The notes beneath the pieces are model-generated. The model was not told the DNA's origin, searched no databases, and was given only the letters and a program-made list of their open reading frames with translations. The translations under genes were made by a program, and so were the position numbers. A DNA stretch of 35,880 bases, taken from the UHGV virus genome UHGV-0165226. One strand, 5' to 3'. This stretch comes from a virus. Numbering within the stretch: the stretch's first letter is position 1; every line of letters starts with the position of its first letter. Of the stretch, positions 691 through 23,131 are shown in pieces.

Positions 691-1743
691 TTACGGGGTA
701 ATGCCAACCGCTGCCGCCACTTTGTCGCCACTTGGCAGCGTTGCCAGAGGATTGAAACGGAGCGCCGTTTCTAGATGATCCGGTGCCAGATGTGCGTAAC
801 GCATAGTCATTTTTATATCGTGGTGTCCGAGAATTTTTTGTAAGGCCAGAATGTTTCCACCCGACATCATGAAGTGCGCCGCAAACGTATGGCGCAGAAC
901 GTGTGTGAGTTGACCGCGAGGGAGCACGATAGACGTTTTTTCCATCACGGATAAAAATTGAAAATAGCAGTCTGTGAAGAAATTGAACCCATCAAGCGCC
1001 ATGATCTCTTCGTAAAGCTCTTTACTGATAGGGATGCTTCTGTTTTTCTTCCCCTTCGTTCTGACAAAGGTAATTCGGTATTTGGTCACCTGTGAGCGGG
1101 TAAGATTTACGGCTTCACGCCAGCGTGCGCCTGTGCTTAAGCATATCTTAACTACCAGTGCCAGAATTGGGTCCTGACGTTTGCAATCAGCCAGCAATTC
1201 AACAATCTGCTCATGGGTAAGCCATGCCATCTCTTTTTCTGCGATGGTGAATTTTCGCATGTTCTCCAGTGGGTTCGGATACGACCATTCGCCCAGACGG
1301 GATAGTTCGCTAAAAACACTACTTAGATAGCTTTGCTCCAGGTTAATGGTGACCGGGCTTGCTCCTTTCTTCCATTTCTCGCTGAAGTAGATCTCGCCTG
1401 TCAGGCGTTTATCTCGATAGTGGGCAAACATTTTAGAGGTGAGATCGGTTGCAAGAGGATTGCCCAGAGCGTCAACCATCAACAGCAATTTGTCATAGAC
1501 ATGCTGCCCAGCTGTCAGAGATTTACCATGTAGTTTGAACCATAGCTCAACCACGTCTTTCAGTGTTCGACGATCCACTGATTCACCCAGCCAGGGCTTT
1601 GCTTCGGTTTCTTCCATCGTGTGGCGCTCAAAAGCCAGTGCTTCGCCTTTGGTAGCGAATTGTTTACGCACACGACGCCCACTTCGTCCGGCGGGGTAAC
1701 ATTCGCAAAGCCATTTCCCTGTGGTTAGTTTTCGTACTGCCAT
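691..1743 (-). CDS. int: Tyrosine integrase, P2 Int-like
   Basis: 350-aa ORF. N-terminus has the P2 Int-like pattern (GRSGRRVRKQFATKGEALAFERHT); C-terminal catalytic region (HVLRHTFAAHFMMSGG...LGHHDIKMTMRYAHL) carries the tyrosine recombinase R-H-R-Y signature. Sits at the prophage edge, transcribed toward the junction. Confidence 0.92.
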   Translation of the reverse strand: MAVRKLTTGKWLCECYPAGRSGRRVRKQFATKGEALAFERHTMEETEAKPWLGESVDRRTLKDVVELWFKLHGKSLTAGQHVYDKLLLMVDALGNPLATDLTSKMFAHYRDKRLTGEIYFSEKWKKGASPVTINLEQSYLSSVFSELSRLGEWSYPNPLENMRKFTIAEKEMAWLTHEQIVELLADCKRQDPILALVVKICLSTGARWREAVNLTRSQVTKYRITFVRTKGKKNRSIPISKELYEEIMALDGFNFFTDCYFQFLSVMEKTSIVLPRGQLTHVLRHTFAAHFMMSGGNILALQKILGHHDIKMTMRYAHLAPDHLETALRFNPLATLPSGDKVAAAVGITP

Positions 1744-1825: not shown

Positions 1826-3502
1826 CTAAGCAACATGTAGTTCATCGTTGGCGGAAGTGGCTGCTTTGCGCTCCTGCTCAATAGCTAGAGACTCTCTATA
1901 TTCTTTCGCCTCTGCAAACATTGTCCAGTGGGCGTTGATGTTCATGTCTTCAATAACTGATTTGATTTCTTTTAAATTTACGTTAAAAAACTCTTTTCGT
2001 GAGTTAATTTTATTGACCTGCTTTTCGTTGAAAACTTTATGCAGATGGTTTTCTAATGATGGTGCATCATCACTATAAATCATCGCATGAACATCGAACG
2101 AAAAAGGAACACTAGCATCTCCGAGTTCACGAACACGATCAAGTGGTTCAAGGCGGCGTGTCATTCCAATTTTATATACATCTTCGCCAAATGAACCAAT
2201 ATTACTAATGATATAGACGTGGCCTGATCTGGTTTGTTGAGCCATAGAAATAGCTCGTTGATTTTTAGCTTCAGCTTCTTCATATTTTAACTGTAGTTCA
2301 GCTATTTTTTGCTCTAAAGCTAAGCGTTGTTCTTCATTTGCAAGCATAAGTTCTTTCGTTGCTTTATTTATAGCTTGCTGAATAGCTTTTTCTTCTTTTT
2401 CAGCTTCTTTTATCGCTTTTTCATATTCTCTACGAGCTCTTTCCTCTTCACGAAGCTGTTCTTTAATCCTTCTTTGCTCTTCTTTTTCTTCGAGCATAAT
2501 TTCATTAACTGCTACACCCCATTTTAGCTCGTTGAGTCTTGCCTGAAGATAGATGTCACTTATTTTTGCGGACCTAAAGGCAGAGCCATTGTAATTTACT
2601 AGTTGAAATGCATCTTTTATTTCTTGGGAAAGTTTTCCAAAATTGTTGTGTTTGACTTTTGATAAAATACTGTCAACTCTTCCATTGAAGGCATCCAAAA
2701 CAAAGTTTATGGCAGTATTACGCCTGTTTTGCTCAACATAATCACACGAAGCAGCTTTATTAGTTTTTATTAATGATTTGGTTAACTCTCTGGCTTTTTG
2801 TAATTCCTTGCCTGCATCTGTAAATTCATAATTTTCTGCCAGCTCATCAAGTACACTACGGTTAGGGATGATCCATTCATCACCATAACCTTCAATTTTA
2901 TTTTTCATTGATTTTGCAACTGCTTCATATTTTTCTGCAAACTCTTTAGCTTCATATGCTGAACCAGCAATCTCCTTTGCTCTTTCTTCTGCATCAGAAA
3001 TAATTTTTACTGCATTGTCATTAGCATTTGAGATTAGCTCATTTGCTTTATTATTAGCATTATCAAGACGTTCTTTGGCTTTCAGGCGTGCATCGCGAGC
3101 GTCTTTGGTGATTGCTATAGCTTCGCTATTAGCGTTGCTTATTGTCATCTGAGCTTGATAATTTGCTTCGTTTACTGTTTTAGCCGCCTTAATTTGGGCT
3201 TCATCTATTTTTTGCTTGGCTATTGAGTCCGCATTTTTTATCTTATTCTCTGCATCCATTACTGCGCTGTGCAATTCTTCGTATTGCCACAATGGTGCTG
3301 CTCGCCCTTCAAGCTCTGATAATTCTCGTACGGTCTGTGCTAGTTTTTCTTGATTTTCAACCAGTTGGTTAGAAAGGGCTATGTTGTTAGCTGTCAGGTT
3401 ATCTATAGCCGCTTTGTGTTTTTTACTTTGTTTAAATAATATTACAGCTAGAACAGGGGCGAGAAATGCTAATAAGAGTATAACGATGGCAAATGAATTC
3501 AT
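1826..3502 (-). CDS. Cargo protein: N-terminal transmembrane anchor, long coiled coil, C-terminal T5orf172/GIY-YIG-like domain (DUF4041-type architecture)
   Basis: 558-aa ORF, ATG at 3502 with AAGGA upstream. Hydrophobic N-terminus (FAIVILLLAFLAPVLAVILF), about 300 aa of K/E/A-rich heptad-like sequence, then GHVYIISNIGSFGEDVYKIGMTRRLEPLDRVRELGD...FDVHAMIYSDDAPSLENHLHKVF, which resembles the T5orf172/MUG113 motif. Strongly AT-rich relative to neighbours. Confidence 0.75.
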   Translation of the reverse strand: MNSFAIVILLLAFLAPVLAVILFKQSKKHKAAIDNLTANNIALSNQLVENQEKLAQTVRELSELEGRAAPLWQYEELHSAVMDAENKIKNADSIAKQKIDEAQIKAAKTVNEANYQAQMTISNANSEAIAITKDARDARLKAKERLDNANNKANELISNANDNAVKIISDAEERAKEIAGSAYEAKEFAEKYEAVAKSMKNKIEGYGDEWIIPNRSVLDELAENYEFTDAGKELQKARELTKSLIKTNKAASCDYVEQNRRNTAINFVLDAFNGRVDSILSKVKHNNFGKLSQEIKDAFQLVNYNGSAFRSAKISDIYLQARLNELKWGVAVNEIMLEEKEEQRRIKEQLREEERARREYEKAIKEAEKEEKAIQQAINKATKELMLANEEQRLALEQKIAELQLKYEEAEAKNQRAISMAQQTRSGHVYIISNIGSFGEDVYKIGMTRRLEPLDRVRELGDASVPFSFDVHAMIYSDDAPSLENHLHKVFNEKQVNKINSRKEFFNVNLKEIKSVIEDMNINAHWTMFAEAKEYRESLAIEQERKAATSANDELHVA

Positions 3503-3522: not shown

Positions 3523-4119
3523 TTAATTCGAGACTATTGTACTTCTTATACAAGCAACCACTTCAATATCAGAAAATGCACATTCAAAGCTATTCTCTGC
3601 TGTTGTAATTTTAATCATTCCTTTAGGAAGCCTTGTGATTTTTCGAATGGAATAGGTTCCGTCGATATTGATTAACCAGTTTCCATCAAGTACTTCAGAA
3701 AATTTTTGATCACAAATGTATGTGACGAGTCCATCCTGAACAACAATTGGTGATGAAAGGTTTGCAGGAAGAAATGATGAATCGAAGACATATGAACCGT
3801 CTTCAATCATTTTGCCTGCGGCAAGGCGAAACTTAACAAGCTCTTCTGTAGCTGCTGTCAGCGAGCTTTGCTTAAGGCCTTGTCCGGTAGTTAACCATTT
3901 GAGGGAGGTTCCTGTTTCAAGAGCACATTGGATTATCCAGTCAGCAGGAAATGTATCCCGCAAATACCTGTTCGCTAGTGTGCTTTTTGATACTTCCAAG
4001 TGATCAGCTAAAGCCTGTCGTGTCGTAAAGCCATAGGCTTCGACTAATCGCTCAATCGCAGCCTTACCACCTTTATTGGGATTTATTTTGATCTCACTTG
4101 GGTACTTTGATGTTGACAT
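3523..4119 (-). CDS. cI: Immunity repressor, phage 186 CI-like
   Basis: 198 aa, similar in size to 186 CI (about 192 aa) and unlike P2 C (99 aa). HTH-like region (TTRQALADHLEVSKSTLANRYLRD) plus a C-terminal domain. Divergent from the apl/cII operon. Confidence 0.8.
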   Translation of the reverse strand: MSTSKYPSEIKINPNKGGKAAIERLVEAYGFTTRQALADHLEVSKSTLANRYLRDTFPADWIIQCALETGTSLKWLTTGQGLKQSSLTAATEELVKFRLAAGKMIEDGSYVFDSSFLPANLSSPIVVQDGLVTYICDQKFSEVLDGNWLINIDGTYSIRKITRLPKGMIKITTAENSFECAFSDIEVVACIRSTIVSN

Positions 4120-6042: not shown

Positions 6043-6269
6043 TGGCTGATGCAATGGATCTCGTACAGCAGCGCGTTGAAGAAGAACGCCAGCGCCATAT
6101 CCGTGCAGCCCGTGCCAAATCACCGGGCGTGTCACGCGTACTTTGCATTGAATGTGAAGCGCCAATTCCGCCAGCACGACGCCGCGCCATTCCGGGAGTG
6201 CAGCTTTGCATTACCTGTCAGGAAATCGCAGAACTGAAAGGCAAACATTACAACGGAGGTGCTGTATGA
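6042..6269 (+). CDS. TraR/DksA-family C4 zinc-finger protein
   Basis: 75 aa with CIECEAPIP...CITCQ, a CxxC-N17-CxxC arrangement typical of TraR/DksA-type zinc fingers; translationally coupled to neighbours. Confidence 0.75.
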   Translation: MADAMDLVQQRVEEERQRHIRAARAKSPGVSRVLCIECEAPIPPARRRAIPGVQLCITCQEIAELKGKHYNGGAV

Positions 6270-7123
6270 GCACCATCCTGAAATGGGCGGGAAATAAAAC
6301 CGCCATTATGCCAGAACTGAAAAAATACCTTCCTGCTGGCCCGCGACTGGTTGAACCTTTCGCGGGTTCCTGTGCTGTGATGATGGAAACGGATTATCCC
6401 AGCTATCTGGTTGCGGATATTAATCCTGATTTAATCAACCTCTATAAAAAGGTTGCCGCTGATTGTGAATCGTTTATATCTCGCGCCAGAGTTTTATTTG
6501 AGATCGCAAACAGGGAGGTGGCTTATTACAACATAAGGCAGGAGTTTAACTGCTCAACTGAAATTACTGATTTCATGAAAGCGGTATATTTCCTGTATCT
6601 CAATCGTCACGGTTACCGTGGTTTATGTCGCTATAACAAGAGCGGGCATTTCAACATTCCCTACGGTAATTATAAAAATCCGTATTTCCCTGAAAAAGAA
6701 CTTCGCACATTTGCAGAAAAAGCCCAGCGAGCGACGTTTATCTGCGCCAGCTTTGATGAAACGCTGGCGATGTTGAAGGCGGGAGATGTGGTGTATTGCG
6801 ATCCGCCATATGACGGTACGTTTTCCGGCTATCACACTGATGGTTTCACTGAAGATGACCAGTATCACCTGGCATCCGTTCTTGAACATCGGTCATCAGA
6901 AGGACATCCGGTCATTGTTTCTAACAGTGACACATCCCTGATCCGTTCGCTGTATCGCAATTTTCCTCACCACTATATCAAGGTAAAACGCAGCATCGGT
7001 GTGGCAGCTGGCGAGGGTAAATCAGCAACAGAAATCATTGCTGTTTCCGGGCCGCGCTGCTGGATGGGATTTGATTATTCGCGTGGCGTGGATAGTTCTG
7101 CCGTGTACGGAGTACGTGCATGA
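6266..7123 (+). CDS. dam: DNA adenine methyltransferase (Dam-like, N6-A MTase)
   Basis: ATG at 6266 with GGAGG at 6255..6259; motif I FAGSCAV and motif IV DPPY (VYCDPPYDG); N-terminus [11 protein letters not shown] is Dam-like. Confidence 0.9.
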
Positions 7124-9534
7124 GTCATGCCGATATGAACAACTGCTGCGGCTTTAACGAGGCTGCCGCAGCATTCTCATGGAACAGCCCGAAAAAGGCC
7201 ATTAACCCTTATCTGGACCCGGCGGAAGTTGCGCCGGTTTCTACGCTTTCAAACCTGATCACTCTGTACGCTGCCGATAACGAGCAGGAACAGTTGCGCC
7301 GCGAGGCACTGAGTGATCAGGTCTGGGAGCGTTATTTCTTTAATGAATCACGTGATCCTGTCCAGCGCGAAATGGAGCAGGATAAGCTCATTAGCCGGGC
7401 AAAGCTGGCGCATGAGCAGCAGCGTTTTAATTCAGACATGGTCATTCTGGCGGACGTCAACGCCCAGCCTTCCCATATCAGCAAGCCGCTGATGCAACGT
7501 ATTGAATACTTCAGCAGCCTGGGCAGGCCAAAGGCTTATTCCCGCTATTTACGTGAGACGATTAAGCCATGTCTGGAACGACTGGAGCATGTACGCGACA
7601 GTCAGCTATCTGCATCTTTTCGCTTTATGGCAAGCCATGAAGGGCTGGACGGCCTGCTGATCCTGCCTGAAATGAGTCAGGATCAGGTGAAACGCCTGTC
7701 CACCCTGGTAGCTGCGCATATGAGTATGTGCCTTGATGCAGCTTGTGGTGATTTGTATGCCACCGATGACGTTAAGCCAGAAGAAATCCGCAAGACATGG
7801 GAAAAGGTGGCAGCGGAAACCCTGCGTCTGGATGTCATCCCACCTGCGTTTGAGCAACTCCGTCGGAAAAGAAACCGCCGTAAACCCGTGCCCTATGAAC
7901 TCATTCCGGGTTCGCTGGCGCGTATGTTGTGCGCCGACTGGTGGTATCGGAAATTATGGAAGATGCGTTGCGAATGTCGGGAAGAGCAGTTGCGCGCTGT
8001 TTGCCTGGTCAGCAAAAAAGCATCTCCTTATGTCAGCTATGAAGCCGTGATGCATAAACGTGAGCAGCGCCGTAAGTCGCTGGAGTTTTTCCGTTCTCAT
8101 GAACTGGTGAACGAAGACGGCGACACGCTGGACATGGAGGATGTGGTAAACGCCAGCAGCAGCAACCCTGCGCATCGCCGCAATGAGATGATGGCCTGTG
8201 TTAAAGGTCTGGAGCTTATCGCGGAAATGCGCGGTGACTGCGCCGTTTTCTACACTATCACCTGTCCGTCGCGTTTCCATTCCACGCTAAATAACGGCAG
8301 ACCAAACCCGACCTGGACAAACGCGACGGTAAGACAAAGCAGCGATTATCTGGTCGGTATGTTTGCTGCATTTCGTAAGGCGATGCACAAAGCCGGGTTG
8401 CGCTGGTATGGCGTGCGGGTGGCTGAGCCGCATCATGATGGCACAGTTCACTGGCACCTGTTGTGTTTCATGCGCAAAAAAGACCGCCGTGCCATCACTG
8501 CATTACTGCGTAAGTTTGCCATCCGTGAAGACCGCGAGGAGCTGGGCAATAACACTGGGCCGCGCTTTAAGTCTGAGTTGATTAACCCGCGCAAAGGAAC
8601 GCCGACAAGCTACATCGCGAAATATATCAGTAAGAACATTGACGGTCGTGGTCTGGCTGGCGAGATCAGCAAGGAAACGGGTAAATCTCTGCGTGATAAC
8701 GCTGAATACGTGAATGCCTGGGCGTCTCTGCATCGTGTTCAGCAATTCCGCTTCTTTGGTATTCCGGGGCGTCAGGCTTACCGTGAACTTCGCTTGCTGG
8801 CTGGTCAGGCGGCAAGGCAACAGGGTGACAAAAAAGCAGGTGCGCCGGTACTGAATAACCCGCGTCTTGATGCCATTCTGGCTGCTGCTGATGCTGGTTG
8901 TTTTGCCACCTACATCATGAAGCAGGGCGGCGTACTGGTTCCCCGTAAATATCACCTCATCAGAACCGCTTATGAAATCAACGAAGAGCCGACCGCCTAT
9001 GGCGATCACGGCATTCGTATTTATGGCATCTGGTCACCCATTGCAGAGGGCAAGATCTGCACTCATGCAGTGAAGTGGAAAATGGTTCGTAAAGCCGTTG
9101 ACGTTCAGGAGGCGGCAGCCGACCAGGGCGCTTGCGCCCCTTGGACTCGTGGCAATAACTGTCCCCTTGCTGAAAATTTGAACCAACAAGGGAAAGACAA
9201 ATCAGCTGATGGGGATACCAGAACGGAAATCACCCGCATGGATGACAAGGAATTGCACGATTACCTGCACAGTATGAGCAAAAAAGAGCGCCGGGAACTG
9301 GCAGCAAGGTTACGCCTGGTTAAACCGAAACGGCGTAAAGACTACAAACAGCGAATTACAGATCATCAGCGACAGCAGCTCGTCTATGAACTGAAGTCCA
9401 GAGGATTTGATGGCAGCGAGAAAGAGGTCGATTTACTCCTTCGCGGCGGCAGTATTCCGTCAGGAGCAGGCCTGCGTATCTTCTATCGGAACCAGCGTCT
9501 GAAGGAAGATGATAAGTGGCGGAACCTGTATTAA
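7120..9534 (+). CDS. A: Replication initiation endonuclease, P2 gpA-like (rolling-circle HUH nickase)
   Basis: 804 aa. HUH-type motif [10 protein letters not shown] and active-site tyrosine motif YIAKYISKN. Start overlaps the dam stop (ATGA). Confidence 0.9.
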
Positions 9535-9686: not shown

Positions 9687-9875
9687 ATGCAGGACTATTT
9701 TTTGGAGTCTTTGAAGCTTCAGCGCATTGATTTTTTTCTTAAGCTTGTAGCGGCTAGTGAGTGTAGTGATGAAGAGAAGGGGCTGGCTCTGCAGTGGGTT
9801 TCTGAATTGACTGATGAACTTATGGCAAAAATCAGAAGCCACGAATACAACCGCTCAATGGATGTCATCAGCTGA
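9687..9875 (+). CDS. Small SOS-controlled protein, possibly the N-terminal part of a Tum-like antirepressor
   Basis: 62-aa ORF, ATG at 9687 with AGGAGG at 9677..9682, directly downstream of the LexA box. Confidence 0.5.
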   Translation: MQDYFLESLKLQRIDFFLKLVAASECSDEEKGLALQWVSELTDELMAKIRSHEYNRSMDVIS

Positions 9876-9885
9876 GGTGACTTTT

Positions 9886-10119
9886 ATGCGCATTGAAATA
9901 ATGATCGATAAAGAGCAGAAGATTAGCCAGTCTACCCTGGACGCCCTTGAATCCGAGCTTTACCGCAATCTGCGCCCCCTGTATCCCAAAACGGTAATTC
10001 GTATCCGAAAAGGTAGCTCTAACGGTGTGGAACTGACCGGACTGCAACTGGACGAAGAAAGAAAACAAGTGATGAAAATTATGCAGAAGGTGTGGGAAGA
10101 CGACAGCTGGCTGCATTAA
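9886..10119 (+). CDS. DinI-family protein (Tum/DinI-like, SOS-induced)
   Basis: 77 aa starting MRIEIMIDKEQ...LDALESEL...VWEDDSWL, resembling DinI (MRIEVTIAK...); ATG at 9886 with GAGGTGA upstream. The ORF frame is open back to 9814. Confidence 0.75.
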   Translation: MRIEIMIDKEQKISQSTLDALESELYRNLRPLYPKTVIRIRKGSSNGVELTGLQLDEERKQVMKIMQKVWEDDSWLH

Positions 10120-10160: not shown

Positions 10161-10208
10161 GGTTGAACAACGAGCAGGGCGAGGCGTTAGTGTTATCATC
10201 AAAGAATT

Positions 10209-10766
10209 TCACATAAACATCTGGATTTGCTCGTTTTTTAGTTGGTTGATTTTTTCGCGCAATCTGATCTTTTCATCAGCTTTTTCCAAAGAGGCTGGTG
10301 ACATGCAGTTAATCAAAGCGTCAAGGTGCTCTGGAGATTTGATAATAAAGAACTTTTTGTATTTATTAACAAAAACGACAGAGCATTTTTTACGTTTAAG
10401 AAGCTCAATCACGTTACTCAGAGTACCCGTGCTCTTCGTATCCCAAACCATTAATCCATAATCGGCTTCTTCTGCCATTTTGAGATCTTTCGCAGTGAAA
10501 AACGCGCGAGTGCCGGCTGCATGGCTAGTACTTACTACATGTACAGGCCATGAGCCAAGATTATTGCGCGGTTTTTCTGAGCTACTGAATACTGTGGCTT
10601 TTTTACATCCAAGTTCTAGCAATACGCGTTGAACAGATGAATCAACACCATTGGCATCACCAACTACAATACGAAAACGCGAGTTAACAATTTTTTTCAG
10701 ACGATCCACGATGAGTGTGTCAAGGTTTTTGATGGTTATTGAACCAGCAACAAATACCGTAGTCAT
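10209..10766 (-). CDS. SLOG/DprA-LOG-like Rossmann-fold protein (cargo operon, gene 2)
   Basis: ATG at 10766 with GGAG 6 nt upstream, 2 nt after the stop of the PRTase gene; about 185 aa. Core VFVAGS...IVVGDANGVDSSVQRV...ATVF resembles the glycine-rich nucleotide-binding loop of DprA/Smf/LOG (SLOG) proteins. AT-rich. Confidence 0.7.
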   Translation of the reverse strand: MTTVFVAGSITIKNLDTLIVDRLKKIVNSRFRIVVGDANGVDSSVQRVLLELGCKKATVFSSSEKPRNNLGSWPVHVVSTSHAAGTRAFFTAKDLKMAEEADYGLMVWDTKSTGTLSNVIELLKRKKCSVVFVNKYKKFFIIKSPEHLDALINCMSPASLEKADEKIRLREKINQLKNEQIQMFM

Positions 10767-10768
10767 CA

Positions 10769-11350
10769 CTATCTCCAAGTCAAAGCTGCAACATAAATGC
10801 TTCTAACCTTAGTATAATCGTTTAGCACAGCACAAGCAGCCTCCATAGATGCGCCTGTATGGTAGAGGTCGTCAATGATAAGGACATTCCAGTTGCCATT
10901 ATTCTCAATACTGTCATTAACAGAGAACGAATTACCCAGCGCCGTGATTTTCTCTTCTTTTGTATTCAGGTTCTTTAGCGAAGCCCCGCCGGGGGCTTTC
11001 AACAAGAGGTCATCGAAGCATGGTTTGCCAACTAGTTTGGCTAGTTCCTGAGCTATTTCGGTCACTGGCTGGCGTGCACGCTGATTAGATGCAGCCATTG
11101 GAACGATAAACCCGACATTGCTGAAATGAGGAAAGGCATGCTCTGCTAGGCATTGGGCTAAAGGCTTAACTTGTGACCAATCGTCACGGTATTTAAGCTG
11201 GAAAAGAGATTCGCCTACCTCAGTACGCTCAGTCTCAAACCGCATATGTCCCCACTCATCGTAACCAATGGGAATGCTGCGGATGCTGTGTTTATCCATC
11301 GCAAGACCTAATTCCCAATTTCCAACAATCTGTTTTATGTTGACTTTCAT
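10769..11350 (-). CDS. Phosphoribosyltransferase (PRTase)-like protein (cargo operon, gene 1)
   Basis: 193 aa, ATG at 11350. C-terminal NVLIIDDLYHTGASMEAA matches the type I PRTase PRPP-binding loop (hydrophobic run, two acidic residues, T-G-A-S). No N-terminal Cys4 zinc finger. Confidence 0.75.
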   Translation of the reverse strand: MKVNIKQIVGNWELGLAMDKHSIRSIPIGYDEWGHMRFETERTEVGESLFQLKYRDDWSQVKPLAQCLAEHAFPHFSNVGFIVPMAASNQRARQPVTEIAQELAKLVGKPCFDDLLLKAPGGASLKNLNTKEEKITALGNSFSVNDSIENNGNWNVLIIDDLYHTGASMEAACAVLNDYTKVRSIYVAALTWR

Positions 11351-11614
11351 GGCTCACCGTTTGCTGTGTAAAACACCAAAGATTACCTCTTGTTATATTT
11401 GGTGAAAGCGAAAGTTTCATTTTTTGCAGTGGAGATCAAATGTTACTCCGTGAACATTTTTAGCATGTGGCCTCGCTACACGGTTTGGCGTAACTACTGC
11501 ATGTCTATACTGCATGAATCCGCATGATCGTTTAAGGATCGCTCTAGTTGGGGCCTGCTAGGTATGGCGGGCTTTTGCTTATGTCATGCAGGTGCATGAA
11601 AACCACTATATAAA

Positions 11615-11645
11615 GCGGGCAGGCGTGGCGGGGATACGAGCGCGC
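11615..11645. other. Candidate cos (cohesive-end) site
   Basis: GGCGTGGCGGGGATACGAGC at 11622..11641 resembles the 19-nt cohesive ends of 186 (GGCGTGGCGGGGAAAGCAT) and P2 (GGCGAGGCGGGGAAAGCAC) as I recall them. Memory-based; not verified. Confidence 0.35.
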
Positions 11646-11717
11646 GCATTGATTTCAAAAGATGAAATCAAGTGGTACGATAAGTAGGATTACTACCAAT
11701 TCTCAAAGGGATGTCTC

Positions 11718-13415
11718 ATGCATAGAATTGTTAAAGCTCATCTTGATAACTTCGTGAAAAGTCACGGTATTGAAAATCATCAAGAGGACACGCAGTTCGA
11801 GCTATTTTGTAATAAAGCTTTGCTGTCTTCTCGTATAAGTATGGATTATGAAATTGACGATGTAACAACCGGGGCTGGTGATGATGGCATGGATGGTGTT
11901 GCCATCATAATTGATGAAGAATTGTGTATATCTTCTGAAGATGCTACTTCAATATTTTCCTCATTACGTAAAAATCATGATGTTGATATTGTTTTCATTC
12001 AATCAAAGCGTAGTGAGTCTTTTGATTTAGGTGATTTTTTAAAGTTTAAAGCTTCCGTTTTTAGATTTATAGAGGATTCTCCTTACTTATGTGTGGATGA
12101 AATTCAAAAAAATGCAAGGGAAGTTTTTGATGTCATAATAAAAAATGTACCTAAGATAAGAGGTGGGCGACCAACTTTTACTGCTAAATATGTTGCAACT
12201 GGTTTATATAAAAAACCTAAAGAGTTAGAGAATGCTCGGAAGTTATTTGCAAAAGAAATTGACGAGTTGGGATATTTCTGTAATGTTAGCGTTGAGTTTG
12301 TTGATCGTGATGAATTAACACGTACTTGGATTGATACTTATTCAGTTGTCAATGCTGAATTGCCATTATTTAGTAATGCACCACTTCCCAAAATTAATGG
12401 TATAGAAGAAGCTTATCTTGCTGTCGTTAAAGCAAAGGATTTTGTTGGTAATTTATTGATGACGGACGAGGGGTCTCTCCGTAATCATGTTTTTGTTGAG
12501 AACGTCCGGGCGTTCTTGGGAATTGATAATCCTGTTAACGCATCGATTGCTGAGACAATTAAAAATAAAGATGCCGCTTCACGATTTCCTGTTTTAAATA
12601 ATGGAATAACAATTGTTAGTCCGGATGTAAAACTTCAAGGGAGTATTTTACATCTAGAAAATTTTCAGATAGTTAATGGCTGTCAGACATCAAATGTGCT
12701 TTACGAATGCCGCGATTCCTTAGATGATACGATGATGGTTAACTTGAAAGTCGTAGAGACATTAAACGAAGATGTTTTTTCAGAATTGGTTCGAGCGACT
12801 AACAGTCAGACTAAGGTTGATGAGACTCAGTTCTATTCTCTTCGTCCAATAATAAAGAAAGTAGAAGCGTACTTTGATACTTATGAAGGGCAGGATGGTC
12901 GTTTATATTTAGAAAGACGTGAAAGACAATTTATCGGTAGAGATATACCTGCAGTTAGAGTATTTTCAGTTCATATGGCAGCTAAATGTGTAGCAGCTAT
13001 GTTCTTCCGTCGGCCAGATCTTTCATATAGATACCCTAAAAAAATGTATGAATTGTTGGCTGAGAAAATATTTTCTAATGATACCAAGGAGATTGTATTT
13101 TATTCAGCATGTTTAACATTATATAGATTACACTTACTTACTTCTAATGCTGATATTCCACAAAATATCAGGAAGTATAAATGGCATTTAATGGCGGTAG
13201 TTGGTGCTTTAATTGCCGGAAAGGATGTGCCTAATTTTGGCTCTAAGAAAATGGATGCGTATTGTAATAAAATCATCACTGAAATGACAAAGCATGGTGA
13301 TAAAATAAAAGCTACTTTCCAGAAGGCTGTTGATATTGTTTTGTCAATTGATGATATCACTGATGATAGAATGAAAAGGCAAGCTATTTTAGAGGAAATG
13401 CTTGCCAAGATTTAA
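11718..13415 (+). CDS. AIPR-family (abortive-infection phage-resistance-like) protein
   Basis: 565 aa, ATG at 11718. Central motif VLNNGITIV...FQIVNGCQTS matches the AIPR family signature (NG...QT). Very AT-rich. Confidence 0.75.
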   Translation: MHRIVKAHLDNFVKSHGIENHQEDTQFELFCNKALLSSRISMDYEIDDVTTGAGDDGMDGVAIIIDEELCISSEDATSIFSSLRKNHDVDIVFIQSKRSESFDLGDFLKFKASVFRFIEDSPYLCVDEIQKNAREVFDVIIKNVPKIRGGRPTFTAKYVATGLYKKPKELENARKLFAKEIDELGYFCNVSVEFVDRDELTRTWIDTYSVVNAELPLFSNAPLPKINGIEEAYLAVVKAKDFVGNLLMTDEGSLRNHVFVENVRAFLGIDNPVNASIAETIKNKDAASRFPVLNNGITIVSPDVKLQGSILHLENFQIVNGCQTSNVLYECRDSLDDTMMVNLKVVETLNEDVFSELVRATNSQTKVDETQFYSLRPIIKKVEAYFDTYEGQDGRLYLERRERQFIGRDIPAVRVFSVHMAAKCVAAMFFRRPDLSYRYPKKMYELLAEKIFSNDTKEIVFYSACLTLYRLHLLTSNADIPQNIRKYKWHLMAVVGALIAGKDVPNFGSKKMDAYCNKIITEMTKHGDKIKATFQKAVDIVLSIDDITDDRMKRQAILEEMLAKI

Positions 13416-13466
13416 TTATACCTTGACATGTATATTAACGTGATTTTTTAAGTTGAATATCTAAGT

Positions 13467-13501
13467 AAAAAGAGTGCTTTTATTGTTAAGCACTCTTTTT
13501 T
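13467..13501. terminator. Bidirectional intrinsic terminator between the AIPR gene and portal gene Q
   Basis: Stem AGAGTGCTT (13471..13479) / AAGCACTCT (13488..13496), 8-nt loop, flanked by AAAA upstream and TTTTT downstream, so it works on either strand. Confidence 0.75.
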
Positions 13502-13502
13502 A

Positions 13503-14540
13503 TTAAGCTAACTCAAGGCTATATGTATTGAATTTAATAATGTCATCTTCTACCCACTCATTAATTTCTTTGATTCTTTCCTGTAAGGGGGTTAATTCGT
13601 TACGGACGAATACCTTGCTGGCTTTTTCAATATCGCCAAATCCACCAGTGTTTTGTGGAATAATGCCCATCATCTGCGGAGGAACTCGATGTGCTGCCAT
13701 CATGTCATCGCGACTGACATTTTTGATATTCAGAAACTCATCCTTCGCCGCGACTTCTGACAACGGGATGATCTGAAGCCCGTCCTTTTTGCCGTTAGGC
13801 GAGTACATAAACAAATTGCGGAAGTTGCCTGGACCTTTGGCACTTTTCATCGCGTTGCGGAGGTTGTTTACATCTTCCTGGTTTTGCGCGGCGTCGGTCA
13901 TGTACATGATGAAGCCTGCATGACTGCCGTTAATGTAATACTTCCGGCGGAACAGCGTGGCGGACTCGTTGAGCAGGGCTGACGGAATGACAGAAAGATA
14001 GCCGGGCAGGCCGTAGATTTCTTGATTAATATCCGGCTCCATCAGGTGAAAAATGCTGCCTTTCGTGAACTGATACGGCTGCGTGGTCATGCCGTATTGC
14101 ACAAACCAGTAGGTATCCAGGTCTAACCCGCGTCGGGTGTATTTTGCCAGCGCAGGCTCAAGGGCGATAACTTCACCGAATCGGTTCGTGCGTTTCTCCA
14201 GGTAGGCGTTACCAAATACCAGATAGTCCTGCACAAAACGCGAAAAAGCCTGCTGGCTGAGCAGCGGGTGGGGGATGTAGGTACTGGTCAGAATGTTGCA
14301 TTTCACCGCAATTGGTGAACTGTGATGCACGGCGGCGCGGAAGGTGCGCGCCAGTCCGTCAAAGCTTACTGGCGGCTCATACCAGCGATCTGTCTGTAAG
14401 CATTCCACATAGTCCAGCAGTTCGCGGCGGTCCATAACAGGAACGGGATCACCGAAGCTGAATGCTTCGGCTGTAGTTTGACTTTTATGCTGGATCTGGT
14501 TCGTCGACGCAGCGCGGTTCTTCTTACTCTTTCCCATCAA
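13503..14540 (-). CDS. Q: Portal protein (P2 gpQ)
   Basis: 345 aa, P2 gpQ size; conserved position opposite the terminase gene; 4-bp overlap with P. Confidence 0.92.
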   Translation of the reverse strand: MMGKSKKNRAASTNQIQHKSQTTAEAFSFGDPVPVMDRRELLDYVECLQTDRWYEPPVSFDGLARTFRAAVHHSSPIAVKCNILTSTYIPHPLLSQQAFSRFVQDYLVFGNAYLEKRTNRFGEVIALEPALAKYTRRGLDLDTYWFVQYGMTTQPYQFTKGSIFHLMEPDINQEIYGLPGYLSVIPSALLNESATLFRRKYYINGSHAGFIMYMTDAAQNQEDVNNLRNAMKSAKGPGNFRNLFMYSPNGKKDGLQIIPLSEVAAKDEFLNIKNVSRDDMMAAHRVPPQMMGIIPQNTGGFGDIEKASKVFVRNELTPLQERIKEINEWVEDDIIKFNTYSLELA

Positions 14541-16303
14541 AAAATCTCCACAATATTACTGGTATTGGCGGACTCGCCCTGCAGTGGTTCGTTAAACAGT
14601 GCGTGCATTGTTGCCCAGGCCAGATCGGCGTGGCTGGCTTCTTCGCTGCGGCTGGCTTCATAGGTTGGGCGGTTGCCACTGGCGGTGGTTGCGCGACGGA
14701 TTGCCATGAATGACTGCGCAATGTCGGTGTGCCCGGCGTCAAACTCCAGACGGCGGTGGCTGATAATGTCGTAGGCCTTGAGTACCAGGGCGTTTTTAAC
14801 GTTGGGGTTGTAGACAAACTCCCGGACGGCAGGAAAGAACGCTTTCACGTTCTCGTAAACCCCGTGACCAACGCCGGTTGAGTCGATACCGATATAGGTC
14901 ACGTTGTACTGTTCGGTAAGTTTTTTGATGGCGTCAGCCTGGGCGCGGAAGTCCATCCCGCGCCACTGGTGACGCTCAAGAATGCGGAACTTACCACCCG
15001 GCACGGCTGGCGGTGCCACCACCACGCATCCAGCGCTGTCGCCGTTTTGCGTACCTTTTGCCGGGTCATAACCGATCCACACTTCGCGCCAGCCAAACGG
15101 GCGCAGCGCCAGTGCATGAAAGTCGGTCCAGACTTCCCAACTGTCCACCATGCACGCCTGCAGCTCGCTGAGCGGAAACACGGACGCGAGATCGTCCACA
15201 AACTCGCACATCAGCAGGTTCTGGTATTCGTCCGGGCTGTACTCCATGCGTAGCTGGTCGAGGTCGAACAGGTTACAGCCGCCGCGCACCGCATCTTCCA
15301 CGGTGACTATCTGGCGGTATTGCCCGTCTGCGCACAGCAGGCCGGGGGCCAGATTGCTGTGGGACAGGTCGATGTCCACCTTATCGGCTTTGTTGCGCCC
15401 ACGGTTGAACAGCGCACCGGACCAGAACGGATAAGCACTGTGTGTCAGACTGGATGGCGTGGAAAAATAGGTTTGTCGCCATTTTTTGTGAATAGCCATA
15501 CCGGAAGCCACTTTGCGCAGCTCCTGGAATTTCGGTATCCAGAAATATTCATCCAGATACAGGTTGCCGTGGTAACTCTGGGCCGTGCGGGCATTGGTGC
15601 CGAGGAAGTAAAGCGTGGCCCCGTTAGGAAGCACCATCGGATCGCCTTTCAGCTCCACCTCCACTTCTTTGGCAAAGTCGATGATGTACTGTTTAAAGAC
15701 GTGGGCCTGAGCCTTGCTGGCAGAAAGGAAAATCTGGTTACGCCCGGTCAGCAGGGCGTCAATCAGGGCTTCACGGGCAAAGTAAAAGGTCGCGCCGATC
15801 TGGCGTGACTTCAGCAGGTTGCGGATGCGGTTGGTTTTTCCGGCTTCCCACCAGTGGCGCTGGTAGTTGAACATGGAGGAATGGAAGATTTCTTCCAGTT
15901 TCTCAATCTGTTCATCGGTGAAAACATTCTTTTCCGGCTGACGACGTGGGCCTTTGTTGCGGTTGGCAACGTTAGGGTTTAAGTCGGCTTCGTTGCCGCC
16001 ATTGTTAAACTTGCCGATCCGCGCGTGGCGCTCAGACTGGCGTGCCAGCAGGTCAATTTCTTTGAAATCTTTCCCTTCTTTGTGCTCCTTCATAATGAGC
16101 TGGCAGTAGCGTGCGGCGGTGGTGAGCTGCATCTGATCCAGCGGCCCATAGTCACCCCACTTGTCGCGTTTTTTCCAGCTGTGAACGGTTGCAACTTTCT
16201 CGCCCAGCATTTCAGCAATGCGGGCGACGCGGTATCCCTGAAAGTACAGCAGCATGGCCTGCCGACGGGGATCGAGATCTGCGGGTGTCAGTGTGGTGTT
16301 CAT
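14537..16303 (-). CDS. P: Terminase large (ATPase) subunit (P2 gpP)
   Basis: 588 aa (P2 gpP is about 590); divergent from the O-N-M-L capsid operon as in P2. Confidence 0.92.
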   Translation of the reverse strand: MNTTLTPADLDPRRQAMLLYFQGYRVARIAEMLGEKVATVHSWKKRDKWGDYGPLDQMQLTTAARYCQLIMKEHKEGKDFKEIDLLARQSERHARIGKFNNGGNEADLNPNVANRNKGPRRQPEKNVFTDEQIEKLEEIFHSSMFNYQRHWWEAGKTNRIRNLLKSRQIGATFYFAREALIDALLTGRNQIFLSASKAQAHVFKQYIIDFAKEVEVELKGDPMVLPNGATLYFLGTNARTAQSYHGNLYLDEYFWIPKFQELRKVASGMAIHKKWRQTYFSTPSSLTHSAYPFWSGALFNRGRNKADKVDIDLSHSNLAPGLLCADGQYRQIVTVEDAVRGGCNLFDLDQLRMEYSPDEYQNLLMCEFVDDLASVFPLSELQACMVDSWEVWTDFHALALRPFGWREVWIGYDPAKGTQNGDSAGCVVVAPPAVPGGKFRILERHQWRGMDFRAQADAIKKLTEQYNVTYIGIDSTGVGHGVYENVKAFFPAVREFVYNPNVKNALVLKAYDIISHRRLEFDAGHTDIAQSFMAIRRATTASGNRPTYEASRSEEASHADLAWATMHALFNEPLQGESANTSNIVEIF

Positions 16304-18357: not shown

Positions 18358-19008
18358 ATGAGCCTGAGTCCCGCACGGCAGCATCGCCTGCGCGTTCAGG
18401 CTGAACAGGCCGCCCGCGAGGGCGGCAGTGTTCGCCACGCGTCGGGCTATGACCTGATGCTGCTGCAACTGGCGGAAGACCGTCGCCGTCTCAAGGGCGT
18501 TCAGTCCACGGTCAAAAAAGCGGAAATCAAGGTGGAGCTGCTGCCGAAATACGTCGCCTGGGCAGAGGGTGTCCTGGCTGCCGGAGGCGCTCAACAGGAT
18601 GACGTGCTGATGTACGTGATGCTGTGGCGCATTGATGCCGGAGATTATGCCGGGGCGCTGGAGATCGGGCGTCATGCCCTGCGTCATGGTTGGGTGATGC
18701 CGCTGGGTAATCGCAATGTGCAGACCGTGCTGGCAGAGGAAATGGCAGACGCGGCGCAGAGCGCAATGCTTGCCGCCACCGGCTTTGATGCCGATCTGTT
18801 GCTGCAGACGCTGGAGCTGACAGACGGTCTGGATATGCCGGACCAGTCACGGGCTCGTCTGCATAAAGCGATTGGCGCTGTCCTGAGTGAAAGCAACCCG
18901 GCTTCCGCCCTTAATCATCTCAACCATGCGTTACAGCTCGATCCCCGCTGTGGCGTGAAAAAAGACAAACAGCAGCTGGAGCGCCGACTGCGCAATGACA
19001 GCCGCTGA
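18358..19008 (+). CDS. M: Terminase small/endonuclease subunit (P2 gpM)
   Basis: 216 aa, immediately downstream of N as in P2. Confidence 0.85.
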   Translation: MSLSPARQHRLRVQAEQAAREGGSVRHASGYDLMLLQLAEDRRRLKGVQSTVKKAEIKVELLPKYVAWAEGVLAAGGAQQDDVLMYVMLWRIDAGDYAGALEIGRHALRHGWVMPLGNRNVQTVLAEEMADAAQSAMLAATGFDADLLLQTLELTDGLDMPDQSRARLHKAIGAVLSESNPASALNHLNHALQLDPRCGVKKDKQQLERRLRNDSR

Positions 19009-22261: not shown

Positions 22262-23131
22262 TCAAAACAATCTCAATAAATTATGATCAATCGTAAGCAA
22301 GTTGGAGATAACAAGTTTGTTATTATCAATATTGAATTTTTCTAATATTGCTGCTACAGCACTGGGGTAAGGTTGTGAAGCATATGGAGAAATGTATATT
22401 TTTTCGATTAGCTTTACAGGATCTGTTTTTATTCTTATCCCTTTGGGAGTATAGTTTTCGATGTCGCTATTAATAATTTTTGGTGTTATGGATAAACGTA
22501 CTTCATTTTCATGTGAAAAAGCTTTTCGTTTTAAAAAAGGAACCATTCTTCCGTTCACGACGCAATCTTCAGATGTTAGTTTTTCATCGAAATAATCAAT
22601 GTATTTTACTTCACTAATAGAGATAATCTCTTCAGATTGAAGTGAATCTATCAAGCGTGATATTGATGTTTGAATTGCTATTCCTTTGTTAGCATCTGAA
22701 TACAAACGCCACATTCCTTCTGACTCATGTTCATTTTGATGCCAACAATTCACTGTGACGGAGTTTAAAATCTTAAAATAGATAGATTCTATTTTTGGTA
22801 ATTGTGTATCCATCATTGTTTGCAACTTGGTGATTTCTGTTTCGGCTTTTTCATTAGAGATTCTGCCTAATAGTTCGTTTTCCCTGATACGCTCTACGGT
22901 ATCATTGAAATATGATTGTATATCATTAAACTTACTTTTGACGATGCTTGCCCACGCATTTAAGGCAACCTTAGGTAATAACCCCTCATATGGATCGCTA
23001 TTGCTGTAAGAACTAAGAGGAGAAAAATATAGCTCTTCTCTGGATAATATATCGATGAATTTATCAAGAGACATATAGCGCCACAGTTTTGTTTCAGGTT
23101 TTAAATTTGGACTAATTTGGAATTTATTCAT
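22262..23131 (-). CDS. Cargo protein with DUF2971-like N-terminal region, at the P2 orf30 site between S and V
   Basis: 289 aa on the strand opposite to the late operons; very AT-rich. N-terminus KLWRYMSLDKFIDILSREELYFSPLSSYSNSDPYEG resembles the DUF2971 signature as I remember it. Confidence 0.7.
   Translation of the reverse strand: MNKFQISPNLKPETKLWRYMSLDKFIDILSREELYFSPLSSYSNSDPYEGLLPKVALNAWASIVKSKFNDIQSYFNDTVERIRENELLGRISNEKAETEITKLQTMMDTQLPKIESIYFKILNSVTVNCWHQNEHESEGMWRLYSDANKGIAIQTSISRLIDSLQSEEIISISEVKYIDYFDEKLTSEDCVVNGRMVPFLKRKAFSHENEVRLSITPKIINSDIENYTPKGIRIKTDPVKLIEKIYISPYASQPYPSAVAAILEKFNIDNNKLVISNLLTIDHNLLRLF

Follow-up and report, generated by a model that had tools for sequence, protein, structure and literature searches.

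A predicted P2-family cos site in a Fels-2-like prophage and the break in linkage between the defence genes on either side

The cos site of bacteriophage lambda is arranged as cosQ, cosN and cosB and includes repeated R sites, which are bound by terminase. The cohesive ends of P2, 186, PSP3 and the satellite P4 are known, and all are 19-nt 5′ ends. For P2 and P4, a 55-bp cos core was published by Ziermann and Calendar in 1990 (as quoted in PMC5694545, PMC3931495 and PMC9594776), and longer flanks around the P4 core strongly raise transduction (PMC9594776). A 19-mer identical to the one described below is given as the cos site of the Salmonella phage SEN8 (PMC5427200), and the records of SEN8 and of Cartapus begin at this 19-mer, labelled “putative cos site”. 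Because the 19-mer has already been annotated in this way, the feature is a known one; because the annotations in SEN8 and Cartapus are homology-based, they do not constitute independent proof of the ends.

The interval between gpA and gpQ of these phages has been described as a defence hotspot “adjacent to cos” and, in the accounts given of it there, is treated as one hotspot (Rousset et al. 2022, PMC9122126; PMC13586616). The same accounts report both AbiU and DprA+PRTase from P2-like phages (PMC9122126; PMC13586616), and a DprA+PRTase system from the hotspot has been validated (PMC9122126). That cohesive ends may drive exchange was put forward as speculation by Rousset et al. (PMC9122126), and in the passages of the 2026 study that mention cos, recombination or flanks (PMC13586616), cos is not analysed as a boundary. 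The stretch between cosL and Q had been noted earlier as a site for foreign genes (PMC5694545, in a passage citing Dodd and Egan 1996 and Nakayama 1999).

The window analysed here, i.e., the whole stretch of 35,880 nucleotides of UHGV-0165226, is a P2-family prophage of Fels-2-like type, in which integrase, CI, gpA, Q to L, the tail genes and ogr are all present. Over 10200–13500 its identity with E. coli 30EVA1 (NZ_CP138423) is 100%; other parts of the window differ from that genome, and the comparison with it was confined to this segment. Between the open reading frames 10769–11350 on the minus strand and 11718–13415 on the plus strand there is a gap of 367 bp, 11351–11717. The preliminary description had called it the longest non-coding stretch of the window, and it is (the runner-up has 296 bp) when the window is tiled greedily by open reading frames of at least 60 aa. 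The gap is tripartite: a leader of the PRTase operon (11351–11497), the cos core (11498–11647) and a leader of the AbiU/AIPR gene (11648–11717). The order of the genes around it is gpA, DinI, cos, Q, P, M, which is the position of cos in the P2 family and includes both parts of a gpP + gpM terminase; the product name that PGAP gives to the gpM-like gene is “terminase endonuclease subunit”. The features are collected in Table 1.

Table 1. Coordinates of the cos region, its elements, the flanking cargo and the prophage genes in the window; signed positions are relative to the predicted top-strand cut.
Feature	Position	Strand	Remarks
Predicted cos core	11498-11647 (150 bp)	+	-124 to +26 relative to predicted top-strand cut
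Three distal direct repeats YGCATG	11498-11503, 11511-11516, 11521-11526	+	spacing 13 and 10 nt
Two GATC(G) motifs 11 bp apart	11526-11529, 11537-11540		-96 and -85
GC-rich inverted repeat GCCTGCTA/TGGCGGGC, then TTTT	11553-11576	+	-69 to -46, between the repeat clusters
Proximal inverted pair TCATGCA-GG-TGCATGA	11584-11599		CATGC at -37, GCATG at -28
Counterpart of published 55-bp P2/P4 cos core	11593-11647	+	41-44/55 identical to P2, P4, 186, PSP3
Predicted 19-nt 5′ cohesive end GGCGTGGCGGGGATACGAG	11622-11640	+	register from alignment to annotated cohesive ends
CGCGCGC, outer flank of bottom-strand cut	11641-11647	+	last conserved cos bases; near-invariant to +25
Leader/promoter segment of PRTase operon	11351-11497	-	cargo-specific, outside cos
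Putative leader/promoter segment of AbiU/AIPR	11648-11717	+	
Right-end cargo: ShosT-like PRTase (10769-11350) + partner (10209-10778)	10209-11350	-	
Left-end cargo: AbiU/AIPR gene	11718-13415	+	Pfam AIPR 1.5e-43; PADLOC AbiU 4.4e-112, residues 2-563
Bidirectional terminator hairpin between AbiU and Q	13467-13500		13-bp stem, flanking A and T runs
Integrase	691-1743		
CI-type repressor	3523-4119		
Dam-like methylase	6266-7123		
gpA	7120-9534		
DinI	9814-10119		
Portal Q (P2-type)	13503-14540		
gpP-like large terminase	14537-16303	-	Pfam Terminase_6N, Terminase_6C, Terminase_5
gpM-like small terminase	18358-19008	+	Pfam Phage_term_smal 3e-40

The middle part of the gap is very probably where a P2-family prophage of the Fels-2 type has its cos site, judging from comparison with known ends. 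Junctions of P2, 186, PSP3 and P4 were rebuilt by circularising these genomes at the cohesive ends annotated in their records, and the 150-bp block aligns with all four in exact register, the layout of the repeats and the flanks of the cut included. The order of elements common to the alignment is three distal TGCAT(G) motifs, a spacer, the proximal (CATGCA)nnTGCAT(G/T)AAAACC, AAAGCGGGCA, the cut, the 19-mer and (C/T)GCGCGC. When the gap is aligned locally with real cos junctions the score is 30–39, compared with 9 ± 1.3 (maximum 15) for shuffled sequences, and the 55-bp core of the P2 family is conserved relative to each of the four reference junctions. The preliminary description had placed a possible cos in this gap and had likened the 20-mer GGCGTGGCGGGGATACGAGC, which is located at 11622–11641, to the ends of P2 and 186. 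Both proposals are supported by the register-exact match to the cos of these two phages over repeats, cut flanks and 19-mer, by the finding that 11498–11647 is the sole conserved block of the gap, and by a break in linkage at the cut, which is set out below. The support is of two kinds, homology and population genetics. The 19-mer is identical to those of 186 and PSP3 at 15/19 positions and to those of P2 and P4 at 14/19, its first 13 nt are the same as in 186, and the GGCG(A/T)GGCGGGGAAAGCA(C/T) homology of the family's cohesive ends is found in it. There is one exact match to GGCGWGGCGGGGA in the whole window.

By this register, the top strand is predicted to be cut between 11621 and 11622 and the bottom strand between 11640 and 11641, the exact positions being an extrapolation from the alignment, since the 19-mer differs from the mapped end of 186 at 4/19 positions. 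As read from the sequence, each predicted cut is preceded on its own strand by GCGSGC plus one base (GCGGGCA at the top-strand cut and GCGCGCG at the bottom-strand cut). The same twofold GCGSGC flank is present in P2 and 186, in which the counterpart of CGCGCGC (11641–11647) is TGCGCGC.

The extent of the conserved signal can be seen from related sequences. In blastn searches of phage records, 78–91 P2-like phages, from Salmonella, Klebsiella, Yersinia and Escherichia, match 11495–11648 only; Fels-2 and SopEPhi are among them. The exact 19-mer is found in at least 120 IMG/VR contigs, and when 115 unique sequences are lined up at this 19-mer, the frequency of the majority base is 0.8–1.0 from −124 to +26 and ~0.3 directly outside on both sides, the collapse on the AbiU side occurring at +26/+27. 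The conserved signal is therefore one-sided, with 124 bp on the side of the virion right end and 7 bp past the cohesive end on the side of the left end. None of 120 IMG/VR loci, the majority of which are prophage predictions, begins or terminates at the 19-mer, and no mapped virion ends for this variant of cos were found in the public data looked at (the IMG/VR loci and the SEN8 and Cartapus records).

The clustered TGCATG and CATGCA motifs to which the preliminary description drew attention are located at 11498, 11511, 11585 and 11593, and a degenerate copy, CGCATG, is found at 11521. Over the whole window the hexamer is scarce (16 found, 42 expected), so that four copies in 101 bp are far beyond chance (Poisson p ~2e-7 per 101-bp stretch, ~6e-5 over all such stretches of the window). 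On the evidence of the alignments, these motifs are the family-wide repeats of cos: three direct copies distal to the cut and an inverted pair adjacent to it. Counted over 89 unique cores, the distal GCATG copies at −123, −110 and −100 are kept in 78/89, 84/89 and 82/89, respectively, and the same triple is present in P2, 186, PSP3 and P4; these distal repeats are candidate binding sites for terminase. The CATGC of the proximal pair is kept in 81/89 cores and its GCATG in 88/89, and the equivalents of the pair in 186 and PSP3 are TCATGCAACTGCAT.

Two further elements lie between the two clusters of repeats. The GATC motifs are found in 80/89 and 81/89 unique cores and are conserved above the level of the spacer between them; the junction alignment contains no such pair in P2, 186, PSP3 or P4. 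A packaging site regulated by Dam as in P1 was considered and rejected: a site of that type has GATC-containing hexamer repeats flanking the cleavage site on both sides, and the cos arm has no more than two GATC motifs, which lie on the same side of the cut, 82–96 bp away from it. The GATC pair occurs together with a phage dam gene in 43/49 loci, a co-occurrence that is uninformative, since dam is missing from 5 of the loci that do have GATC, and hosts carry Dam in any case. A bolder suggestion is that, given the phage-encoded Dam, the GATC pair might render recognition or cleavage of cos sensitive to Dam methylation.

The second element is the GC-rich inverted repeat at 11553–11576, which as RNA folds with −18.1 kcal/mol (z = −3.8). 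Its consensus, GCCCGCCAG-N-CTGGCGGGC-TTTT, is present in ~85% of cores, with the pairs kept in 84–97%, and the copy in the window departs from it by two T.G mismatches. Among the 89 unique cores there is almost no covariation, the variation being mostly one-sided or pair-breaking, and therefore no selected RNA structure is claimed for 11553–11576. Inverted repeats of other sequence are found at the same place in 186, in P4 and in one divergent locus, and P2 has none there. The hairpin resembles an intrinsic terminator of the plus strand, and no plus-strand gene lies directly upstream of it in the window. Its role might be either insulation from early transcription or that of a packaging element.

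On either side of the conserved block are the cargo genes, each with its own leader. The preliminary description had named the flanks as a divergent pair of PRTase/SLOG operon and AIPR gene. The AIPR gene stands, with a full-length match to the AbiU model in addition to the AIPR domain, and Fels-2 has an AIPR gene at the equivalent place after cos with 93% aa identity. The PRTase stands with weak matches (PADLOC ShosT 1.3e-8 and PsyrT 1.5e-7; NCBIfam ComF 3.6e-5). Its downstream partner, 10209–10778, gives no Pfam match and matches PsyrA, a model of a DprA/SLOG-type antitoxin, at E = 0.007, for which reason the label “SLOG” is weakly supported. The pair is at most a candidate for a defence system of the ShosTA/PsyrTA type, in which a PRTase toxin is combined with a DprA/SLOG-type antitoxin. 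The AIPR gene of the window (93% aa identity) is also carried by E. coli EC444; the left cargo of Fels-2 and EC444 differs from that of the window.

Each of the outer segments of the gap travels with its own cargo. The segment 11351–11497 together with the PRTase operon is 99.7% identical in other E. coli prophages, and the identity left of −124 is ~25–35% in other loci that have this cos. On the other side, 11656–11684 and the candidate Shine–Dalgarno sequence (AAGGGA, 11706–11711) are kept in the AIPR gene carriers Fels-2 and EC444, the AIPR leader being common to these two only, and a palindrome at 11649–11671 is specific to the window. A role of 11351–11497 and 11648–11717 as promoters of the cargo units, which had been suggested beforehand, is thus plausible, and the part of the suggestion that fared less well is the promoters themselves. 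Pattern matching gives, for the AbiU gene, a candidate promoter of the extended −10 type (TG at 11673–11674, −10 TACGAT at 11676–11681, −35 near 11652–11659) and, for the PRTase operon, a single, weak minus-strand candidate (−35 GTAACA at 11446–11441, −10 AAAAAT at 11424–11419). A scan of the gap for sigma-70 and terminator consensus sequences gave counts no better than those of shuffled sequences, and a relaxed promoter scan of the gap gave weak candidates alone.

The TGCATG motifs could, in principle, be the operators of a regulator rather than packaging signals, and the gap mainly a divergent promoter-operator region. The flanking units are indeed transcribed divergently, and the start of the old-tin transcript of P2 is ~150 bp to the left of cos, which makes its promoter overlap the distal TGCAT repeats. 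Yet the TGCATG block is conserved across 60 clusters of right cargo and 27 clusters of left cargo, in cargo-free loci as well, and also in P4 despite its different neighbours, whereas the cargo-linked segments are located outside 11498–11647. A block that is present whatever the cargo, and in P4, is not a cargo operator, and this reading is very improbable. It is exceedingly unlikely that the gap encodes a small RNA, as the preliminary description had entertained, or a small protein. A stable hairpin with a run of T after it does lie at 11553–11576, mechanically called open reading frames of 42–45 aa overlap the gap, and in one phage record a hypothetical protein is annotated over the core; but the covariance models of Rfam 15 gave no match at E ≤1 in 11200–11850 on either strand, the stem shows the near-absence of covariation noted above, and the sharp-edged conserved block coincides with the elements of cos.

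A cos it may be and still not the working one. In P2, 186 and PSP3, cos lies ~160–200 bp from the stop codon of Q, from which it could be argued that the real cos of the window is next to Q, at 13416–13502, and that 11622 marks a decayed duplicate. Almost no credence can be given to this, as 13416–13502 is AT-rich, has no match to the 19-mer of cos or to its 13-mer, and contains a terminator hairpin alone, and 78/87 related loci likewise have cargo between cos and Q. That hairpin, at 13467–13500 (fold z = −4.6 on the plus strand and −5.6 on the minus strand), is the terminator for AbiU and for the Q-P operon; its counterpart in P2 is tQ. The prophage might instead be cryptic, with a non-working homologue of cos that persists by descent: the core of the window is 88% identical to the consensus of its lineage, and its inverted repeat has two uncommon C-to-T changes, seen in 9/89 and 4/89 cores. 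This is improbable, given that the positions of the repeats, the 19-mer and both flanks of the cut site are intact, that the same core is present in other E. coli prophages, and that the gene set of the prophage is full, from integrase, CI and gpA through Q to L and the tail genes to ogr.

If 11498–11647 is taken as cos, the cargo of the hotspot falls into two groups, one between gpA and cos and one between cos and Q. Among the 87 loci with a detectable end of Q, the distance from cos to Q is at least 527 bp in 78 and P2-like, 153–182 bp, in 9. The cargo forms 60 clusters between cos and Q and 27 between gpA and cos, and the 59 two-ended loci display 55 distinct combinations of left and right. 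The locus is modular. The 1420 nt to the left of the cut are common to the window and the E. coli prophages CFSAN061762 (2 mismatches) and D2 (5 mismatches), which diverge from the window at 11640 and 11647, respectively; their cargo before Q is ParA with a RelA/SpoT-domain protein, or an AAA ATPase. The core of the window recurs unchanged in other E. coli prophages, D2 having one mismatch upstream of it, at 11466.

The same separation is found across the population when pairs of loci are sorted by whether they share the left flank (−324 to −125) or the right flank (+27 to +226) and their median identities are compared. Pairs sharing the left but not the right flank (n = 111) have identities of 0.992 in the 124-bp arm and 0.951 at the 3′ end of gpA, and of 0.865 at the 3′ end of Q, which is near the 0.82 of background. 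In pairs sharing the right but not the left flank (n = 14), Q is raised (0.937) and the arm is at background level (0.875 vs 0.855). The background consists of 5503 pairs that share neither flank (arm 0.855, gpA 0.775, Q 0.82); the sharing pairs are phylogenetically non-independent, 61 and 21 loci contributing to the two sets. Thus, gpA, the left cargo and the cos arm form one haplotype block, and the right cargo and Q form another. The break between them is inside the invariant stretch from −10 to +26 (about 35–45 bp), which contains both predicted cuts.

Such a break would be expected from a physical cut of the genome at this point, and it supports the placement of the termini independently, if indirectly, of the alignments; the linkage pattern would be no different, however, if homologous recombination restricted to the invariant stretch, and not cutting by terminase, had produced it. 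In the right-sharing pairs the identity of Q is below that of the cargo, which implies that cassette exchange with Q as homology arm also occurs. As the arm is inherited with the gpA side and the Q side separately, cos splits the gpA–gpQ hotspot into two freely assorting slots. A stronger proposal, to be held tentatively and with more doubt than confidence, is that cos is a hard linkage boundary and that the two slots are reshuffled by terminase cutting itself; if so, the combinatorial diversity of the cargo would be explained without cassette-specific recombination.

The steps by which this might come about can be outlined. The phage's own terminase, gpM (18358–19008) with gpP (14537–16303), would be expected to recognise the 124-bp arm by its three direct YGCATG repeats, its GC-rich inverted repeat and its inverted TCATGCA/TGCATGA pair, although which protein binds the repeats is a prediction, as are the cleavage positions and the promoters. 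Staggered cuts between 11621 and 11622 and between 11640 and 11641 would then generate 19-nt 5′ cohesive ends, GGCGTGGCGGGGATACGAG. Since nothing is conserved past +26, foreign genes can directly abut the left cohesive end, and since the outer segments of the gap are leaders of the cargo units, the AbiU gene would be the first unit of the virion DNA at its left end and the ShosT-like operon the last at its right end. This agrees with the expectation in the preliminary description that, with cos here, there would be one defence locus at each end of the packaged genome. A single crossover at any point of the backbone, followed by packaging from cos to cos, would reassort the two ends. Because the genome is cut at cos, two cargo slots that are neighbours in the prophage would behave as genetically unlinked.

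The feature is an ordinary P2-family cos, known in kind and in sequence, and what is added here are its exact coordinates, its extent of 150 bp with the grammar of its repeats, and the split of the hotspot into two slots at the level of the population. With the predicted ends, the physical termini of the genome are fixed for a type of prophage that is very common and for the most part unannotated, and whose cos is left unmarked in PGAP-style records. The hotspot becomes two slots, one per virion end: the left-end slot is inherited together with Q, and the right-end slot together with gpA and the arm of cos. This has a bearing on the reshuffling of defence repertoires in P2-like phages and on which genes enter a new host first. 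As the conserved signal is ~150 bp rather than 55 bp, the design of cosmids of the P2/P4 type is affected. Current understanding is refined by this, not changed.

Compared with the cos sites of P2, 186, PSP3 and P4, that of the window has the same register and layout, the same cut flank (AAGCGGGC(A/G) before the cut, GGCG after it), a GC-rich 19-mer followed by (T/C)GCGCGC, and an agreeing position in the arc from gpA to Q and type of terminase. It differs from them at 4–5 positions of the 19-mer, which ends in GGATACGAG here and in GGAAAGCAT or GGAAAGCAC there, and in the GATC pair and the T-tailed hairpin, which are specific to the lineage of the window. In P2, 186 and PSP3, Q follows within ~160–200 bp after cos, whereas here the 1.7-kb AbiU gene is interposed. 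SEN8, Fels-2, SopEPhi and Cartapus have the 150-bp core with cargo on both sides, as the window does, and differ in the left cargo and in a core that is ~83–88% identical. The resemblance to lambda is a functional analogy only, in that there is a staggered cut with a one-sided arm of short repeated motifs, and markers across the cut are genetically unlinked. The lambda overhang is 12 nt rather than the 19 nt predicted here, here the arm of repeats is on the right-end side of the cut, and no IHF site was identified. Finally, in comparison with the papers on the gpA–gpQ hotspot, the present analysis places cos inside the hotspot, finds that its two halves assort independently, and locates the break between them at the predicted cut site.

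The prophage of E. coli CFSAN061762 (L012) has the same left cargo and the same cos arm as the window, and yet its cohesive end and flank read ...GATACGAT|TGCGCTC rather than ...GATACGAG|CGCGCGC as in the window, so that the last base of the predicted 19-nt cohesive end (the 19-mer) and the outer flank belong to the right-hand module. A non-P2 element (L047, IMGVR_UViG_2700989567_000009) encoding RecE-like, RecT, P4-type integrase, ParB-HTH, IstB/DnaC-like and DndB-like proteins also has the window's 19-mer. Its cos further shares CGCGCGC and the GC hairpin and has a degenerate form of the proximal repeat; the distal TGCATG triple is absent from it. This element may be a satellite that borrows the packaging of a Fels-2-type helper, or it may be a recombinant fragment.

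Roughly 90% of Fels-2-type cos arms retain a pair of GATC(G) motifs; the cos sites of P2, 186, PSP3 and P4 are without it. In Fels-2-type phages, a gene for a D12-class adenine methylase immediately precedes gpA; the GATC pair and the methylase gene are found together in 43 of 49 loci, a co-occurrence that is non-discriminating.

Coordinates of the features discussed (window positions, except for L047)
Feature	Position	Strand	Description
GATC(G) pair	11526-11540		two motifs, exactly 11 bp apart, within cos arm
D12-class adenine methylase	6266-7123		just upstream of gpA
Palindrome TTGATTTCA-N5-TGAAATCAA	11649-11671		perfect, 9 bp; overlaps candidate AbiU promoter; z = -4.2 as hairpin
DUF4041 plus T5orf172 protein	1826-3502	(-)	558 aa; between integrase and CI repressor
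DUF2971 protein	22262-23131	(-), opposite strand	289 aa; between virion-morphogenesis gene and baseplate V
cos of L047	1475-1493	(-)	in L047

On the right-hand side, the RefSeq/PGAP annotation of NZ_CP138423 (E. coli 30EVA1) labels the AbiU/AIPR gene (window 11662-13415) a ‘frameshifted’ pseudogene with its start at 11662. The 565-aa open reading frame beginning at 11718 corresponds to the Fels-2 CDS and covers positions 3 to 532 of the 537 of the AbiU model in a profile match; an upstream ATG, which is in frame in relatives, is out of frame in the window through a 2-nt difference. The pseudogene label is probably a start-site artefact. Because the left arm of the palindrome at the candidate promoter is not kept in the leaders of Fels-2 or E. 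coli EC444, this palindrome may be an operator specific to the window allele, or may have arisen by chance.

Two further defence-type genes lie elsewhere in the window, and annotation comparison found both missing from the otherwise related 30EVA1 prophage. The DUF4041 plus T5orf172 protein scores 2.4e-120 against the PD-Lambda-1 defence model; its gene adds a third piece of defence cargo, located in a different variable site. The DUF2971 protein matches PDC-S31, a candidate defence model (2e-24).

In P2 (NC_001895 33424-33470, L003), the old-tin transcript starts have been mapped about 150 bp to the left of cos; therefore, a candidate cargo promoter (-35 TTGAAT, picked by eye) would overlap the distal TGCAT repeats of the P2 cos. 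The cargo leader of the window falls entirely outside the cos core.
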